Virus record (IMG/VR): IMGVR_UViG_3300032296_002061
Span: 1-52,429 of that record
Direction: 5' to 3' (one strand)
Origin: a virus
Taxonomy: Duplodnaviria; Caudoviricetes
DNA length: 52,429 bases
Part shown: positions 12,789 through 27,254 of the stretch, piece by piece
How positions within the stretch are numbered: the first letter of the stretch is position 1
Layout: each line of letters opens with the position of its first letter
Translations under genes and position numbers: made by a program
The notes under the pieces: model-generated
Databases searched by the model: none
Told to the model about the DNA's origin: nothing
Seen by the model: the letters and a program-made list of their open reading frames with translations, nothing else

Positions 12789-12883
12789 TGCTCACCTCCG
12801 CGCAGGCACACGGCCTGCAATCTGCCGACCCTAGTGTCAGCGTGCCAACCTACCAACCGTAGCTGATAGGCTGGACCACTACG

Positions 12884-13126
12884 CTAGGCCAACCGGCTGG
12901 CCATCGCCCGCAACCGCTCCACCGACAGGTCGTCCGGCTTCCTTGCGCCATCGGGCAGCACGCCGTCAACCTGCACGGTCGCCAAGTACCAGCGCACCGC
13001 AGACACATGTGTCGACGCCCACTTGAGTTCCCGCAACAGCACGTCGACCTGATACAGCGTCAACAACTCCTTGCAGTCGCCAACTTCCAGCACCACCAAC
13101 TGACCCTTCGTACTCACGTCCACCAT
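12884..13126 (-). CDS. Hypothetical protein
   Basis: GGAGGT RBS. Confidence 0.55.
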   Translation of the reverse strand: MVDVSTKGQLVVLEVGDCKELLTLYQVDVLLRELKWASTHVSAVRWYLATVQVDGVLPDGARKPDDLSVERLRAMASRLA

Positions 13127-13162
13127 CGCACACCTCCGCGCGCCACGTGGGCGCATAAAGTA

Positions 13163-13975
13163 TCAACGCACGCTCAACTTCAACCGCTTCGCTGCGTGCT
13201 GGCCAGCGGTATCGTGCCGCCAGATAACGACCGACCGTCGGTCTTGCTCGTTGCCGACACTGCCGCACGCAAGACAGTCGCCGCACGTGGTCACGTGGCC
13301 GCGCTCGAAACTAGCGGGGCAAGCGAACTCAGCGCCAGCACGGGGCCGCGCACCGGGCTCGGCAACCCGGAAAGACCGCCATCCTTCAGGCGTGCACGCC
13401 TCGCCGTCAATCGAAGCCACGTGCGTAGCGCGAAGGTGTGGCACGCCGGCCAAGTCTGCGTGAGTGTAGCCAAGCACGGGCAAGCCGGCGTCGTCGCACG
13501 CGCGTTCGATTGTCTGCCATACGTCGACAGGCAGCGCGCCGGCATCGCCCCACACTGCCGACCGAAAGGCGCGCGCACCCTCACGCTTGCGAGCGTGGCG
13601 CATAAAGGCGGCAAGTTCGGCGCCATCCTCCACGGGCAAGTCGGCGGTGCGTGTCAGCCATTGCAGGCCCATACCAACTTGCGAGCCGTTGCCGACATAG
13701 CATGAGCCGTTGCCGCCCGACGCTTTCGATCGGTGCGGGCAGTTGCCGCACACAATCGAGTCGCAGCCGGTCTTGCGCGCGGTCCAATAATCAACGACCT
13801 TCCCGCGCACCACTGGCGCGACCGTCAAGCCGACCACGTGGCCGACCTTGTCGTTGCCGTGCACGCGCACGAAAGCGGCAACGTCGCCCCTGTACTCACT
13901 GCCAGCACGCGCCGGGCCACGGTATACGCACACCGTGCCGGCTGCTACCTTGGAACGAACTTCAATCGAAAGCAT
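13163..13975 (-). CDS. Cys-rich conserved phage protein, possibly Fe-S / radical-SAM-like
   Basis: CDSIVCGNCPHR...CYV, R..VWGD, GYTH, ASID, CPAS...TCGDCLAC. Confidence 0.6.
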   Translation of the reverse strand: MLSIEVRSKVAAGTVCVYRGPARAGSEYRGDVAAFVRVHGNDKVGHVVGLTVAPVVRGKVVDYWTARKTGCDSIVCGNCPHRSKASGGNGSCYVGNGSQVGMGLQWLTRTADLPVEDGAELAAFMRHARKREGARAFRSAVWGDAGALPVDVWQTIERACDDAGLPVLGYTHADLAGVPHLRATHVASIDGEACTPEGWRSFRVAEPGARPRAGAEFACPASFERGHVTTCGDCLACGSVGNEQDRRSVVIWRHDTAGQHAAKRLKLSVR

Positions 13976-14008
13976 AGGCTACTCCACGCAGGCACACAGC
14001 CCGCTTTC

Positions 14009-14075
14009 GCTACCGTTCGCCGTGCCACCGTGGCACGCCCACCCTGCACCACGCGGAGGCGGTAGCTTGCAGGGC
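14009..14075 (-). ncRNA. HDV-like self-cleaving ribozyme
   Basis: GCCCUGC-AA-GCUACC-GCC-UCCGCGU-GGU-GCAGGGU-GG-G-CGUGCCA-CGG-UGGCACG-GCGAAC-GGUAGC contains P1 with the G1-U wobble, P2, P3, L3 UCC..G, P1.1, P4 and J4/2 with the catalytic C. Confidence 0.88.
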
Positions 14076-14097
14076 ACCGGCCGCAGCCGGGAAAGAG

Positions 14098-14247
14098 TCA
14101 GCACCCGCTCACAGCCAAGCACAACAGGCACACCGCCAGGACGCCGACCACCACGGCCAGCAGGTTCAGCGCGTCCGCACGGTCAGCCGCCGCACGCTCC
14201 ATATCCAGCCGCCTGCACGTCAGGCACCGCTTACAATCGTGCTTCAT
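14098..14247 (-). CDS. Small membrane protein (49 aa, not in the ORF track)
   Basis: GAGGTG RBS; MKHDCKRCLTC...LLAVVVGVLAVCLLCLAVSGC. Confidence 0.5.
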   Translation of the reverse strand: MKHDCKRCLTCRRLDMERAAADRADALNLLAVVVGVLAVCLLCLAVSGC

Positions 14248-14447
14248 TGCTTCACCTCATCGTCGAGTTGGGTTCGCCAGTGAACCAGCGCGGAGGCTAG
14301 CTCGTACAGACACGGCACGCCGGCAGGGTATGCGCGGGTCAGTGCGTCCGATGTAGCATCGTCGCACGATAGCCACGCATCCGACAGTTCGCAGGCAGTG
14401 TCGGCCAGTTGGCGGACTAGTGCCCGCATCCGTTCGCGCTCGTTCAT
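14244..14447 (-). CDS. Hypothetical early protein
   Basis: GGAGGT RBS before MNERER. Confidence 0.55.
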   Translation of the reverse strand: MNERERMRALVRQLADTACELSDAWLSCDDATSDALTRAYPAGVPCLYELASALVHWRTQLDDEVKQ

Positions 14448-14448
14448 C

Positions 14449-14652
14449 TCACACCTCCTCGCAGGCCAGCGCCTGCTCATCAAGCCACGTCTTGCGCTCA
14501 CGCTCCGCCACGGAAAGCCAACCCTCGGCCCACGCCGTGGCATGGTCAAAGAGTGTGCCGTAAGTTGCGTCAGGCCACTCGCCCCGCAGGGTGTCCAACC
14601 GCTCCTCGCGCAACGTCGCCAGCGTGGGCAACTCTTCCGCAGGGTCGCACAC
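14449..14652 (-). CDS. Hypothetical early protein (first ORF of the early arm)
   Basis: GTG start, GGAG upstream, acidic. Confidence 0.5.
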   Translation of the reverse strand: MCDPAEELPTLATLREERLDTLRGEWPDATYGTLFDHATAWAEGWLSVAERERKTWLDEQALACEEV

Positions 14653-14717
14653 GTGGTGCGCGCTCCACCGGCCATCGTGGTAGCTGTCTCACCTTCCCCG
14701 CAGGCATCCTGCCCGCT

Positions 14718-14787
14718 TGGCTTGACGGCGCCGGATTCGAACCGGCAAGCGCGAACCGGAGTCCGCGCCGCACCTTGCAACCGCCAA
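14718..14787 (-). ncRNA. tRNA-like element (non-canonical, CCA-ending)
   Basis: T-arm GCCGG-UUCGAAU-CCGGC; acceptor UUGGCGG/CCGUCAA followed by G-CCA; reduced D-arm; no 7-nt anticodon loop. Confidence 0.55.
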
Positions 14788-14930
14788 GAATGTCACCATC
14801 GCGCCCCTGCGCCGTCTCGATTCGGTCATCGTCGCTACCGCTAGTCCGATGCATGACTTCGAACGCAACTTCGAAGTGTGCAGCCTGTAGCGTCTCGCAC
14901 GGTATGCCGGCAGACGGGATAGAGCGCCGA

Positions 14931-14944
14931 GTTGTCAGAGAGCG
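14931..14944 (-). promoter_or_regulatory. boxA-like antitermination site
   Basis: CGCTCTCTGACAAC versus the boxA consensus GCTCTTTAACAA, about 30 nt after the predicted TSS. Confidence 0.45.
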
Positions 14945-14978
14945 CCGGGGCAGTGCGCAACCGCCATCCGTGAAACCC

Positions 14979-15007
14979 ACTATGCAGCGCCCCGCCGGGG
15001 GTGTCAA
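14979..15007 (-). promoter_or_regulatory. Sigma70-type early leftward promoter
   Basis: TTGACA-17 bp-CATAGT at the head of the leftward arm. Confidence 0.7.
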
Positions 15008-15040
15008 CTGCCGCGCCAAGTATGCCCCGAGCCTGCCCCG

Positions 15041-15163
15041 TAAGTGTGCGGAAACACTAGGACGGGCATGTGATCACAGGTAGGGGGCAAGGCAAAGGGT
15101 GGTCTGGAAGTGTGCGGAATCAGTAGGGAAAAAAACGCAAAAACGCTAAGTGTGCGAAATCAC
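15041..15163. repeat. Three direct repeats AAGTGTGCG(G/A)AA, candidate operators
   Basis: Copies at 15042, 15108 and 15148, upstream of the early promoter. Confidence 0.6.
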
Positions 15164-15713
15164 GTAGCAGGGGCAGGAAAGGGGAGCGATGCGGGCGGGG
15201 CGGAGTGACATGGAGACGGGCGCAGGTGGCAGGGTGGTGGCAGCCAAGTAAACCTAGTGCGGGGGTAGGGATATAGGGAAAGTTGACCGATCGGTCAGGT
15301 CACACCTCTGCCCTAGGCGTCGCTCAGAAGGTGAACGCAGGTTCAGCGGCTGAACTTTGGTTCAGTTTCTGAAGGTCGCCGGCTGAAGCCAATCCAGTTC
15401 AGCTAGCTTCAAGTCTTACCGCCACCGTCCCGCGCCGGTAAGCCGGCTTCAATGGACGGCAAGCGAGACGCGAAGCTAGCGGCAGGCTTGCGTTGTGCTT
15501 GGCTTGTGCTTGGCTTGTGCTCACGATGGCGCGTGCGCGAATAAGCGGAACGTGCAGGCCCGCGCTTGTACGTACGCTGTGCCCAGGCGCGCACACCCCC
15601 ACGTTTGTGTGCAGCGCACCTGCACGTCGCGTTCAATTTGCCCATCACCCCCTCTGAGCAAATCGCCTTTCACCATACCCACCCCTTCTGCCACCGCCGG
15701 AGTCCCAAGTTCT

Positions 15714-16082
15714 GGGTAGTCGTCCATTTTGCCCTACGACTACCCAGCCTGAGCACAAAACAGTCTTCTGGGTAGTCTTCCATGGCCGCTAGGTAGTCTT
15801 TGGGTAGTCGTCCAATTTTCTCGTAACTGCATGTATGTATTACAGAAAGTACCAGTTTTACGTATTTGGGTAGTCGTATATCGTATACAGAGGTATGTGA
15901 ATAGAAGAAACATGTTGTATTTATTACTTAGTGGTTTTTTGCACTAAACTATTCCTATAACGCAAATAGGACTACCTGGACTACCTGCGGCTGATTGTTG
16001 TTTGTTGTTGGCAGGTTAGTGGGTAGTCTTTCTATTTATGCACGACTACCCAAGCACGAGATAGGACTACCCGAAGACTACC
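15714..16082. repeat. Putative replication origin: 12 GGTAGTC iterons around an AT-rich core
   Basis: Copies in both orientations near 15714, 15738, 15770, 15792, 15802, 15868, 15970, 15979, 16021, 16044, 16065 and 16076; AT-rich at about 15830-15965; at the strand switch, upstream of the helicase gene. Confidence 0.75.
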
Positions 16083-16084
16083 TG

Positions 16085-16114
16085 TTGACAGGAGTTGGCG
16101 CATTGCGCTAGGGT
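16085..16114 (+). promoter_or_regulatory. Rightward sigma70-type promoter
   Basis: TTGACA-18 bp-TAGGGT upstream of the replication genes. Confidence 0.5.
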
Positions 16115-16283
16115 TTGCCTTGGACGAAATGCGCTATGCAACGGCGCATCGAAATGGAGTATCCGATGACTTTGCGTTTATCGCCCACGTCACCAGTATG
16201 GCTTGTCGTAGCGTTTTCTCCATTTCCGCTACGAACGAGGTTGCACCTATTGGCGGCGTGGGCGATGACCGGGAGGTCTGGCT

Positions 16284-17555
16284 ATGAACAGAATTAGGAT
16301 TGTTCATCCGGTGATTACGTTTCCGGTGATGGGTACTCGCGGGCCGTCTAAGCAGCACGCGGAGAATACGGAAGCGTTGTTGGATGCGTATGGGATTAGC
16401 CTTCGCTACAACCTGATGCGGCATGGGTTGGAGATGGAGATACCTGGGTTTGAGACCGAGAGTGAGCGTTCGGAGAACGCGACGGTGCAGTGTTTCAAGA
16501 GCTTGGTTCAGCGGCATGGGTTGAGTGCGGAGAACTCGCTTGGGCATTTGAACTTCTTGGCGCCTGCTTACCATCCGGTGCGGGATTGGATTTTGTCGCG
16601 GCCTTGGGATGGCGTTGACCGGATGCCGGATTTCATGGCGACGATTGGTCTTGCTGAGAGCGAGAAGGCGCACTTGGCTGGAATGTTGATTCGGAAATGG
16701 TTGGTTGGTGCGGTGCGGGCGGTGATGCCAGATGAGACTTCTGGTCGGCCGTTTACGCCTCAGGGTGTGCTGACTTTTCAGGGGCCGCAGGGCATTGGTA
16801 AGACGGAGTGGTTCAAGTCGCTGGCGCCTCAGGACAAGGATTGGATTTGCACCGGGCGCGTGCTTGACCCGCACAATCGGGATTCGATTCAGCAGGCGAC
16901 TGGTTACTGGATTACGGAGCTTGGCGAGTTGGACGCGACGTTCAAGCGGTCGGACGTTGTGGCCATGAAGGCGTTTGTGACCCAGCCGTTTGATGTCTAC
17001 CGCACGGCTTACGCCATGCGCGAGGAGCGCATTCCCAGGCGCACGATGCTTAGCGCAAGCGTGAATCCGCAGGAGTTTTTGGCCGACGAGACGGGTAATC
17101 GGCGCTGGTGGGTTGTGGCGGTCGATACGCTGGACTGGGACCATAAGGTCGATATGCAGCAGCTATGGGCGCAGGTCGCGGTGATTGCGCAGAGCGGTGA
17201 AAGCTGGTGGTTGAACCGCGAAGAGATTGAGTTGCTAAATGCGTCCAACGAGGACCATGAGATTGTCGACCCGCTGATTGCTGAGCTTGAGGAAACTTGG
17301 CGCATTCCGGTGCTAAGCGATACCCAGAAGCAGCCGCGTGTGAAGCTGGCCGAAATCTGGAAGGCGCTTCCCAGTTATGGTCATGGGGCTATGGATTGTA
17401 AGCAGTCACGCCTTTTGGCTAACAAGCTTCGGCGCATGGGCGCGGAGAACGGCAAGACCAAGGGCTTGACTACATTTTGCGTCGAGAGGGTTCCGCAAAC
17501 CAATGTGCCTACCGGGTTTGCTAGCGCATTCAAGCCGGTGCGTTACGACGACTAG
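16284..17555 (+). CDS. vapE: VapE-family (virulence-associated E) P-loop helicase
   Basis: YHPVRDW, Walker A GPQGIGKT, WITELGELD, YRTAY, FLADETGNRRWW. Confidence 0.9.
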   Translation: MNRIRIVHPVITFPVMGTRGPSKQHAENTEALLDAYGISLRYNLMRHGLEMEIPGFETESERSENATVQCFKSLVQRHGLSAENSLGHLNFLAPAYHPVRDWILSRPWDGVDRMPDFMATIGLAESEKAHLAGMLIRKWLVGAVRAVMPDETSGRPFTPQGVLTFQGPQGIGKTEWFKSLAPQDKDWICTGRVLDPHNRDSIQQATGYWITELGELDATFKRSDVVAMKAFVTQPFDVYRTAYAMREERIPRRTMLSASVNPQEFLADETGNRRWWVVAVDTLDWDHKVDMQQLWAQVAVIAQSGESWWLNREEIELLNASNEDHEIVDPLIAELEETWRIPVLSDTQKQPRVKLAEIWKALPSYGHGAMDCKQSRLLANKLRRMGAENGKTKGLTTFCVERVPQTNVPTGFASAFKPVRYDD

Positions 17556-17563
17556 GAGGGGAA

Positions 17564-17782
17564 ATGGAAACGAAGTTTGATGTTGCTGATGAGTATTCGA
17601 TTGGCATCAAGTGTATGCACTGTGGGCACAACAAGTTGCACGCACCAATTTTGGTTACTGGCAATATTGGCCTTTATACCTTCATCGAGGTTGGTTGCCT
17701 GAAGTGTCACAAACAAACCTTTGTGAACTTCCACATCGTGGATAACGAAGTTTCCGTTTCCGTAACGGATTCTGAGCCATGA
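17564..17782 (+). CDS. Small zinc-ribbon protein
   Basis: CMHC...CLKC. Confidence 0.6.
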   Translation: METKFDVADEYSIGIKCMHCGHNKLHAPILVTGNIGLYTFIEVGCLKCHKQTFVNFHIVDNEVSVSVTDSEP

Positions 17783-22191: not shown

Positions 22192-22860
22192 CTACGCCAT
22201 CGCATACCGGCGCGCACTGGTAATCGTGAACAAACCACCGGTCTGAGTGCGATAGCCTGATTCGTTCAGGTCAGCGGCAATGTCCGACCAGCTCAAGTCG
22301 CGCTCACGCAGCAACTTGGCTCGGTTAATCGCCTCACAACTCACGCTGCACCGCTCCAGCACCCCATCTTCGCGCACACGCTTGCCCAGCGGCACTGCGC
22401 CAGCACGCTTGCCAGCAGCTTTGAGCACCGACAACGCCGCCTTGGTGCGCTCGGCAATGACTTCGCGCTCCCATTCGGACACCGAAGCCAGAATATTGAG
22501 CACCAACCGGCCAGAAGCACTGCGCGTATCGACTTGATCACCCACAGAGAACAGCGTGTAGGGGCTGGAAACGAAGTATTCGTGCAAAATCTTGCCCAAG
22601 TCCTGCACGCTGCGAGTCAAACGGTCGAGCTTAGCCACCAGAATACCGTCGACACCATGACCAAGCATGGAAAGACACCGCAACAACGCAGGCCGCTCCA
22701 TGGTTTTTGCAGAAATCCCAGCGTCAACCTCGATTGCTACGATATCCAAATCGTAAAGCTTGGCGTATACGCGCACTTTGTCCTCTTGCGCAGCCAAACC
22801 CAGACCAGAATCAGCCTGCTCGTTGGTCGAAACCCGAAGATATGCAACAACGCGAGTCAT
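22192..22860 (-). CDS. Serine recombinase (resolvase catalytic domain plus short recombinase-type DNA-binding domain)
   Basis: AYLRVST, DAGISAK..RPAL, KLDRLTRS, EWEREVIAERTK, IAADLNESG. Confidence 0.92.
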   Translation of the reverse strand: MTRVVAYLRVSTNEQADSGLGLAAQEDKVRVYAKLYDLDIVAIEVDAGISAKTMERPALLRCLSMLGHGVDGILVAKLDRLTRSVQDLGKILHEYFVSSPYTLFSVGDQVDTRSASGRLVLNILASVSEWEREVIAERTKAALSVLKAAGKRAGAVPLGKRVREDGVLERCSVSCEAINRAKLLRERDLSWSDIAADLNESGYRTQTGGLFTITSARRYAMA

Positions 22861-25675: not shown

Positions 25676-27254
25676 CGAGATTGATCTGTTGCTTGACCAG
25701 TGGGCCGTATCGCCTCGGGCGTTTGCGGAATGCTTTCGCATCAAGAACAAAGATCGAACCGAAGTCGACTTCAAGGTGTCGGTACCTCAGCAACTTGCGC
25801 TCAACGCGCTGTCGGCCAAGCAGAAGCTGGTGTTTCTGAAAGGTCGCCAGATGTGGATTACCACCATCTGCTTGGTCTGGCAGCTACGCACATGCTTGTT
25901 CAAGCCTGGTGCTATCTGCGCAGTCGGTATGCAGTCGGACTTCAACGCTCGGCAGATGTCGCTGACTGCATACAACCTGTACAAGGGCAATGAGATTCTG
26001 GTCGACTTGATGGGCATCGAGCGCCAGAACGACCACCAGATTCTGTTCAACAACGGCTCGCAGATGTTGTTCGTTACCGCGAACTCGCCTGTGCTACGTT
26101 CGATGCCGCTGAACTTCGCACACCTGTCCGAAGTCCGCGACTACGACGACCTTGGCGAAACGCTGGCCTCGATCAAAGTAGCGCCTGAAGGCACGCTGCT
26201 GCTTGAGTCGACGGCTGGTGGCGAGGACGACTTTTACCACATTTGGAGCGACCCAGAGAGCGCATTCACCAAAGTGTTCTTCTGCTGGCGCGACCACCTT
26301 GAGTATCGCTCTAGCACCGGCATCGACGGCCCGATGCTTGAGGTCGAGAAGGAATACGTCAAGCAGCACAACCTGTCTCGGCAGGAGACTAATTGGTGGA
26401 TTAAGGAGCGCCGAGCGTTGCCGTTGCACAAGCGGCCGTTCATGGTTCAGGAGCACCCGACGACGCCGGAAGAAGCGTTCTTGCTGAGCGGCGACAAGTA
26501 TCTGCGCCGGCAAGTACCGATGCCTCCCGGTGACCCGCGTGATTCGGATGAGGCCGGTATCGTGGTGTACCATCCGTACAACCCAACTCACCAGTACGTG
26601 GTTGGCATCGACCCGGCGCCAGGTTCTAACGAGAAGGGCGACCCGACCGGCTTGGTCATCATCGACATTACCGATCGATGCGTTGTGCTGACTCAAGAGA
26701 TTCGCCAGCCCACCCGTGACTTTGAAGGCCCATGCTTGGAGCTTATCAAGGCATATGGCTCACCGCTGACGGTTATCGAGACGGCAGCCGAAGGTTTGGG
26801 CTTGTGTGACTTCCTGCGTGGTGCGGGCGTATCGATGTACCACATGACGGCGTTTGGCGGCTTGTCTCCGACGATGCTACCTCGGCACGGTTGGCGTACT
26901 GACGTGCAGACACGCGGCATCCTTTATGGCGAGATTTACGAGGGCGCGAGCGGCAACAGTCGCTGGAAGATTGGCTGCCACCGGTTGGTGAAGCAACTTA
27001 ACGCTTTGTGCTACGACAAGCGCGGCAAGCCTGCTGCGCCCAAGAACGGACACGACGACTTGGTTGTGGCGTTTGGCTTGGCGCTACTTGGTGTGGTGCA
27101 AGCGTTGCCTGCTAAAGAAACGCCTAATGTGCAGCAAGAGCCCAAGAATGCTCTTGATGCTTACATGCGCGACTTGGAGCGCGCTATGGCTAGCGGGCAG
27201 AACGATCACTTTGATTTTTCTGTGGATTCACAACAATCTGATTTCTTTGATTAA
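25665..27254 (+). CDS. terL: Terminase large subunit
   Basis: LKGRQMWITT (Walker A variant), AHLSEV (Walker B), LLLEST, YVVGIDPA, IETA, HDDLV. Confidence 0.93.
   Translation: MNDNEIDLLLDQWAVSPRAFAECFRIKNKDRTEVDFKVSVPQQLALNALSAKQKLVFLKGRQMWITTICLVWQLRTCLFKPGAICAVGMQSDFNARQMSLTAYNLYKGNEILVDLMGIERQNDHQILFNNGSQMLFVTANSPVLRSMPLNFAHLSEVRDYDDLGETLASIKVAPEGTLLLESTAGGEDDFYHIWSDPESAFTKVFFCWRDHLEYRSSTGIDGPMLEVEKEYVKQHNLSRQETNWWIKERRALPLHKRPFMVQEHPTTPEEAFLLSGDKYLRRQVPMPPGDPRDSDEAGIVVYHPYNPTHQYVVGIDPAPGSNEKGDPTGLVIIDITDRCVVLTQEIRQPTRDFEGPCLELIKAYGSPLTVIETAAEGLGLCDFLRGAGVSMYHMTAFGGLSPTMLPRHGWRTDVQTRGILYGEIYEGASGNSRWKIGCHRLVKQLNALCYDKRGKPAAPKNGHDDLVVAFGLALLGVVQALPAKETPNVQQEPKNALDAYMRDLERAMASGQNDHFDFSVDSQQSDFFD

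Follow-up and report, generated by a model that had tools for sequence, protein, structure and literature searches.

A CCA-ending tRNA-like element in the predicted 5′ leader of the leftward early operon of a tailed-virus genome

The 52,429-bp DNA analysed here (hereafter the window) carries direct terminal repeats and is the record of a complete virus genome. The leftward genes start at about 14.7 kb and encode an SLT lysozyme, Erf, a PD-(D/E)XK nuclease, two DNA methylases and a 270-aa protein of PHROG 2554, while the rightward genes start at 16.3 kb and encode a VapE-like primase/helicase, SSB, a helicase, the terminase, the portal and tail proteins. The region of about 1.3 kb between these two arms holds no credible gene. 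Five open reading frames run over the tRNA-like element described below, but PHROGs assigned none of the five (0/5) and Pfam returned two sub-cutoff matches only; a protein-coding explanation of the element was rejected for want of a credible family. At least 10 copies of GGGTAGTC/GACTACCC, in both orientations, are located at 15710–16083 between the divergent early operons. This array lies partly in and partly beside the region of the genome that is richest in A+T (about 30% G+C around 15820–15970), adjoining the VapE-like primase/helicase gene, and its copies are likely to be origin iterons or the binding array of a regulator.

A single sigma-70-like site was found within 14400–16400, namely the promoter TTGACA-17-CATAGT of the leftward early operon (14979–15007, minus strand). 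Upstream of this promoter are three 20-nt direct repeats (15042–15167, minus strand; core CGCACACTT, with exact 9-mers at 15042, 15108 and 15148) that look like operators. The minus-strand core of the repeats is TTYCGCACACTT; a similar motif precedes the promoter of the closest IMG/VR relative (L002, see below), and a fourth, looser copy is found at 14874–14882 in the leader. With the start of the transcript placed at about 14972 from the −10 box, the untranslated leader upstream of the element spans 14788–14972 (minus strand), contains a palindromic hairpin around 14858–14881 in the predicted fold, and has no counterpart in the alignment with L002. The element had been described in an earlier note, made from the sequence alone, as lying just behind the early promoter. 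A sigma-70-like site is indeed present upstream, but "just behind" is a loose description, with 192 nt separating the −10 box from the element. Positions 2–11 of the element (14777–14786) recur as a 10-nt direct repeat near the start of the leader (14957–14966), 180 nt upstream, which could be a trace of the insert's origin or an alternative pairing partner for the 3′ strand of the acceptor stem.

On the downstream side, a 7-bp hairpin with a GGA loop (14700–14716, minus strand), a feature of the MFE and centroid structures of the leader alike, begins 2 nt after the CCA of the element. The sequence directly 3′ of the CCA is G+C-rich; RNase E prefers A/U-rich sequence, and the 3′ flank of the element is not of that kind, which speaks against the processing proposed below. 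The hairpin is followed by a purine-rich, Shine-Dalgarno-like stretch, GGGGAAGGTGAGAC (14686–14699, minus strand), where GGAAGGTG is common to L002. The first small gene of the leftward operon (14449–14688, minus strand, as given in the list of open reading frames) encodes a protein that shares 52% identity with its equivalent in L002. Its conserved residues (DSY.DGRWSA, shared with L002) reach up to an in-frame TGA at 14691–14689. The first canonical in-frame start is the GTG at 14652; an ATG is present further upstream in L002 and in a variant from a public sequencing run (X4, see below). The original start of this gene seems to have been lost through a mosaic joint at about 14685.

The tRNA-like element itself occupies 70 nt of the minus strand (14718–14787), as delimited by its sequence, its fold, a census of its base pairs, a geometry scan and a sub-threshold ARAGORN call, and the strand read from 14787 to 14718 agrees letter for letter with the transcription in the earlier note. 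The acceptor stem consists of 8 bp formed between positions 1–8 and 59–66 (5′ strand, 14787–14780; 3′ strand, 14729–14722). It is followed by a 3-bp mini-hairpin, the D-like stub (14778–14770; positions 10–12 paired with 16–18) with an AGG loop, and by a long hairpin at positions 19–40 (14769–14748). A single linker base (14747) then leads into the T-arm (14746–14730), the discriminator G (14721) and the encoded CCA (14720–14718). The T-arm GCCGG-UUCGAAU-CCGGC, the 8-bp acceptor stem, the discriminator and the CCA are all borne out by sequence and fold, and the D-arm, which had been reported as a 3-bp remnant, takes that form in both the MFE and the centroid structures. The long hairpin does replace the anticodon arm, but it folds better as 9 bp capped by a 4-nt UCCG loop than as the 8-bp stem with a 6-nt loop originally drawn. 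The UCCG loop sits on a C-G pair and constitutes a UNCG-type tetraloop, a motif that is exceptionally stable.

The MFE and centroid folds of the isolated 70-nt element both match the drawing in the earlier note. The folding energy is −36.6 kcal/mol (z = −2.44), and an equally good fold was obtained for 3 of 200 shuffled sequences. All 25 pairs are standard, with 21 Watson-Crick and four G-U pairs. The fold of the element is retained in both MFE and centroid predictions for a 336-nt stretch of leader, in which the C at 14788, directly before the element, additionally pairs with the discriminator. As modelled, the element cannot read codons, because its anticodon arm is closed as a 9-bp hairpin with a UCCG tetraloop cap.

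The geometry of the element is rare by chance. Both strands were scanned for a TTCRANN loop of 7 nt on a 5-bp stem, followed by a flush acceptor stem of 7 or 8 bp, one further base and CCA. One match was obtained in the window, the element itself, and only one of 300 dinucleotide-shuffled sequences contained any match. ARAGORN at default settings reported no tRNA, and none was found at 100% of the threshold; at 96–99% of the threshold, the element was the sole candidate in the 52 kb. In the program's drawing the acceptor stem has 8 bp and the loop 6 nt, and the "anticodon" consists of two letters, cc. A setting of 80% returned 58 "genes" and carries no weight. The second-best sub-threshold candidate (tRNA-Leu caa, 25865–25960, plus strand, at 90–95% of the threshold) falls within the gene for the large terminase and is most likely spurious.

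The Rfam tRNA model (RF00005) gave no match at E ≤ 10 anywhere in the record, although the same model was positive in 14 of 14 control genomes, and Rfam gave nothing at gathering scores. The best permissive match was to tRNA-Sec (RF01852), with 21.7 bits against a gathering score of 47 (E = 0.11 on 701 bases), and this match adopts a different 5′ register; other Rfam families gave only sub-threshold noise within 14400–16400. The scoring by ARAGORN and Infernal that the earlier note had proposed thus places the element below the ARAGORN threshold and outside RF00005. That normal decoding is ruled out, as the same note had held, is upheld by the 6-nt loop and two-letter "anticodon" of the ARAGORN drawing and by the lack of any RF00005 match at E ≤ 10.

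Like canonical and aberrant phage tRNA genes, the element contains a 5-bp T-arm with a 7-nt consensus loop of the T-psi-C type, an acceptor stem, a discriminator and an encoded CCA. It differs from them in having an acceptor stem of 8 bp rather than 7, and in place of a D-arm of 3–4 bp with a 7–11-nt GG loop it has the 3-bp stub with a 3-nt AGG loop. The variable region is reduced to one base between the hairpin and the T-arm, rather than at least 4 nt, and the usual 5-bp anticodon stem, with U33 and a three-letter anticodon in a loop of 7 nt, is missing. Bacterial tRNA-Sec has an 8-bp acceptor stem, a 5-bp T-stem, G73 and CCA; the element shares with tRNA-Sec just the 8/5 geometry of acceptor and T-arm among the features that define that class. 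The element is thus clearly tRNA-derived or tRNA-shaped, yet not a standard tRNA. Its position and the predicted transcript would make it a non-decoding mimic of the acceptor and T-arm within or beside a longer RNA, the arrangement of a tRNA-like processing element.

The distribution of the element was examined among relatives of the virus. The closest relative in IMG/VR, L002, shares 74–75% identity in the 270-aa neighbour and the 52% given above in the small first gene. Its promoter has the same design (TTGACA-17-TACAGT) at the equivalent place, and the same GGAAGGTG precedes its small gene. The distance from the −10 box to the first conserved codon is 64 nt in L002 and 290 nt in the window, and the additional 226 nt or so of leader contain the element. 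A covariance model built on the element gives 104 bits with the window itself and found no match in the L002 record. The element is therefore part of a 5′-leader insertion, or has been deleted in L002, and the phage group can do without it, because L002 has none.

Other searches added few relatives. The 270-aa protein retrieved one locus from IMG/VR, that of L002, and the small first gene led to the same record; the VapE-like primase/helicase retrieved no relatives. A search of IMG/VR with the portal protein gave eight loci, and the element is present in none of the seven further records (0/7). Three of these relatives were compared with 12800–17600 of the window: two showed no similarity, and the third, the longest, ends near window position 15350, short of the element, so that this negative result carries no weight. 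A search of genome contigs gave 43 pattern matches and no relative, and a search of metagenome contigs yielded one relative at 28% identity, without the element. Pattern searches of IMG/VR with the 29-nt 3′ part, with the loop plus T-arm and with the 19-nt 5′ part gave zero matches each, and BLAST of the element against 50,697 phage records returned nothing better than E = 0.9.

Homologous stretches were found in public sequencing runs. Twenty listed runs from 14 studies, one of them perhaps the source sample, contain part of 13000–16500, and four of them were compared at 80% likeness: X2 and X4 (both labelled freshwater), X5 (wetland) and X19 (aquatic). None of the listed runs that contain the stretch is on record as RNA; X19 and X20 were put down as RNA by guess alone, and on comparison X19 is marked "probably DNA". 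In three of the four, contig pieces of 134–264 nt span the element and upstream leader at about 86–91% identity. The X4 piece (record 19) covers 14714–14852 with 19 other letters and two gaps, the X5 piece (record 29) covers 14685–14948 with 24 other letters and 12 gaps, and the X19 piece (record 6) covers 14711–14844 with 14 other letters and 10 gaps; these counts refer to whole pieces, element and leader together. Two separate deletions of 1 nt, one at 14792 and one at 14794, are common to X4 and X19 and would fit poorly with coding sequence just upstream of the element. Conservation among relatives, to which the earlier note had attached weight, is thus divided, with the element missing from the closest IMG/VR relative and homologous stretches present in contigs of other runs.

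These contigs also differ from the window around the element. The X4 piece departs from the window sequence 4 nt past the CCA and the X5 piece at 14685, and in another X4 contig the sequence upstream of the small gene is a different one, joined at 14685. In X2, a contig matches 14979–15463, continues with letters unlike the window, resumes at 14788–14765 and ends with 11 letters that form a variant of the hairpin top. In this variant, the loop reads UUCG instead of UCCG, the A-U pair adjoining the C-G pair that closes the loop is changed to G-C, and G24 is changed to A, whose partner falls outside the letters seen. The shorter side of the X2 joint comprises 24 letters at 80% likeness, and such joints often stem from other organisms and may also stem from repeats; the variant is thus a weak hint in favour of the interpretation given below. 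Taken together, the pieces indicate that the element travels as a block: its limits fall near the ends of the structure, and the surrounding genomes are dissimilar on either flank, as would be expected of a discrete, gene-like unit.

The interpretation that we favour, tentatively and with slightly less than even confidence, is that the element is a tRNA-derived, non-decoding tRNA-like RNA in the 5′ leader of the leftward early operon, which host tRNA-processing enzymes would cut. Such cutting is proposed because the parts read by these enzymes are intact and the decoding part is replaced by a rigid hairpin. An early transcript that includes the element would start from the sigma-70-like promoter (15007–14979). 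The features available for recognition would be the stacked acceptor and T-arm, the T-loop, the G-CCA tail and the GG of the D-like loop, which could form an elbow. RNase P would then cut at or adjoining 14787, and 3′ trimming would proceed to the encoded CCA at 14718. The predicted products are a stable RNA of about 70 nt and an early mRNA that would begin just before the 14716–14700 hairpin, detached from the variable leader of about 190 nt. The exact site of the cut is uncertain and could shift by one base, since the stack has 13 bp instead of 12 and C(−1) can pair with the discriminator G73. The earlier note had offered three roles: a processing signal, a decoy for defence toxins and a degenerate tRNA. 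A processing signal or processed small RNA appears to fit the position in the 5′ leader best, a decoy role is speculative, and the reading as a degenerate tRNA loses ground because the pairing is flawless and the tetraloop stable.

The element may instead be a neutral relic, that is, what is left of a phage or host tRNA gene after loss of the D-arm and anticodon loop, now carried in the leader without function. This is unlikely, though it retains an appreciable chance of being correct. The failure of the element against tRNA models and its absence from L002 are both in keeping with decay, and the six loop letters (C, U, CCG, G) read, in standard tRNA numbering, like a 7-nt anticodon loop minus one base. 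However, the integrity of all 25 pairs is unexpected for a decaying gene. Moreover, the loop and its closing pair make up a UNCG-type tetraloop, which the X2 variant, as weak evidence, keeps as UUCG, and the element persists at about 86–91% identity in contigs whose downstream flanks are unlike that of the window.

Improbable, in our estimate, is a role in trans, in which a CCA-ending RNA would soak up a host factor, such as a tRNA-targeting defence nuclease or a CCA-modifying toxin, or would be charged or otherwise used by a tRNA-binding enzyme. The acceptor stem, T-arm, GG loop and CCA are intact with the decoding part replaced, and expression from the first leftward promoter is predicted to be early; both points speak for such a role. 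Published work covers phage tRNAs that act against tRNA-targeting defences as well as defences that cut the tails of tRNAs (PMC10264068, PMC11555353, PMC12851939). Nevertheless, no connection between the element and a defence system was apparent, the counter-defence tRNAs on record are working decoders, and the genome contains no partner gene such as a ligase or CCA enzyme.

An anticodon-less tRNA does occur in an unrelated phage contig of 164 kb. It was found by scanning IMG/VR for a UNCG-type hairpin top, 12 bases, the same T-loop core, 12 bases and CCA, which gave three loci. One of these (L025:368–445, on a contig of 163,909 bp) is the sole Rfam tRNA match of its record, at 42.5 bits. It has a normal acceptor stem, D-arm and T-arm, but its anticodon arm is a 4-bp stem with a UGCG tetraloop; ARAGORN reports it as tRNA-??? 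with a two-letter anticodon, and its sequence is unrelated to that in the window. This case raises the possibility that anticodon-less tRNAs have arisen more than once in phages, but it is a single extra example and came from a pattern that demanded the same geometry. The other two loci (L023 and L024, identical in sequence; L024:383–441) are on small contigs, lack a clean CCA tail and were not accepted as members. They contain a long hairpin capped by the consensus T-loop (UUCGAAU), preceded by a C(UUCG)G hairpin, and resemble a minihelix.

A broader proposal would hold that phages repeatedly evolve UNCG-capped, anticodon-less tRNAs that are expressed early and occupy host factors of the tRNA body or CCA tail without entering translation, with the elements of the window and of L025 as two independent members. 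We regard this as a long shot. If it were true, the host factors concerned might be defence effectors that cut or modify tRNA tails, or processing or modification enzymes. Among the matches listed in a search of the open-access literature, none describes a non-decoding phage tRNA mimic, which is not proof of absence in print.

It is very unlikely that the element is an attachment-site remnant, in which part of a host tRNA gene was copied into the phage by integration and excision. Its tRNA-like 3′ half with an encoded CCA, and the mosaic boundaries near its ends, are what such a remnant could leave. The earlier note had named an exact match of the 3′ half to a host tRNA as the sign of an attP remnant. 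No such match was found: in searches confined to exact matches, the 24-nt 3′ part covering T-arm and acceptor occurs in no stretch of a genome collection of 185,579 species, and the 29-nt part occurs in no IMG/VR viral contig. A tyrosine or large serine integrase is also missing from the genome; the only recombinase, a resolvase-type protein of 222 aa (22192–22860), is encoded 7.4 kb away. The attP reading is unlikely because of these two results, the lack of an exact 24-nt match in the scanned species genomes and the lack of a nearby integrase. An attP would not require both acceptor strands, yet the element has them, and the record is a complete genome with direct terminal repeats. Hardly credible is an unusual working tRNA, either decoding with a 6- or 8-nt loop or built as a selenocysteine-like 8/5 tRNA, for which the 8-bp acceptor, 5-bp T-stem, G73, CCA and best Rfam match would speak, as that match falls far below the gathering score in another 5′ register, UCA anticodon and long variable arm are lacking (the variable region being 1 nt and the D stub 3 bp), and the loop closes into a tetraloop.

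To return to the favoured interpretation of a processed tRNA-like RNA, the element was compared with the nearest known systems, and by sequence or model score it belongs to none of them. In layout it resembles the tRNA-like domain of tmRNA, which has an acceptor stem, a short D-loop analogue, a long helix in place of the anticodon arm, a T-arm and a CCA end. The G3:U70 pair of tmRNA is absent, with G3-C64 and G4-U63 found instead, as are the tag reading frame and the pseudoknots. Identity as a tmRNA was rejected on the missing G3:U70 pair and on ARAGORN, which reported no tmRNA at the default or 80% threshold. The mascRNA of MALAT1 is a tRNA look-alike that is cut by RNase P and RNase Z; the cuts yield a small RNA ending in CCA and fix where the neighbouring transcript ends. 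This mascRNA is eukaryotic and nuclear and is located at the 3′ end of its transcript, whereas the element of the window is located in a phage 5′ leader.

Bacteriophage systems were considered as well. C4 RNA lies in the leader of the operon that it controls. A C4-type antisense RNA was rejected: the Rfam C4 model (RF01695) gave no match at E ≤ 10, and complementarity to the element does not exceed chance. The longest complement outside its own locus is 10–11 nt, and shuffled elements mostly give 11–12 nt; an antisense mode is without support because the complements are no longer than those of shuffled elements.

Precedents for RNase P acting on RNAs other than tRNAs are nevertheless at hand. 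The passages of PMC11143913 on such substrates include phage M3 RNA, the precursor of the phage C4 antisense RNA, 4.5S RNA and pre-tmRNA, with the C4 RNA of P1/P7 and the M3 RNA of phi80 being freed from longer transcripts by the host enzyme. Also among the nearest systems in function are the t-elements of plant mitochondria, tRNA-like signals beside mRNAs, thought to be cut by tRNA-processing enzymes to give transcript ends (PMC1920247). They are, like the element of the window, non-decoding mimics of acceptor and T-arm adjoining an mRNA; t-elements are organellar and their processing has been shown, whereas the element is from a phage and its processing is predicted, and the two have no sequence relation.

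For annotators, the locus is a warning that a candidate slightly below the thresholds of tRNA finders need not be noise and can be a genuine structured RNA. Cutting as predicted would make the element a bacterial-virus equivalent of the tRNA-like punctuation found in organelles and in eukaryotic long noncoding RNAs: the phage would borrow the tRNA-processing machinery of its host, both to shape its first early mRNA at the 5′ end and to release a small stable RNA. Should that product act in trans, it would represent a new RNA tool in the conflict between phages and bacterial defences over tRNAs.
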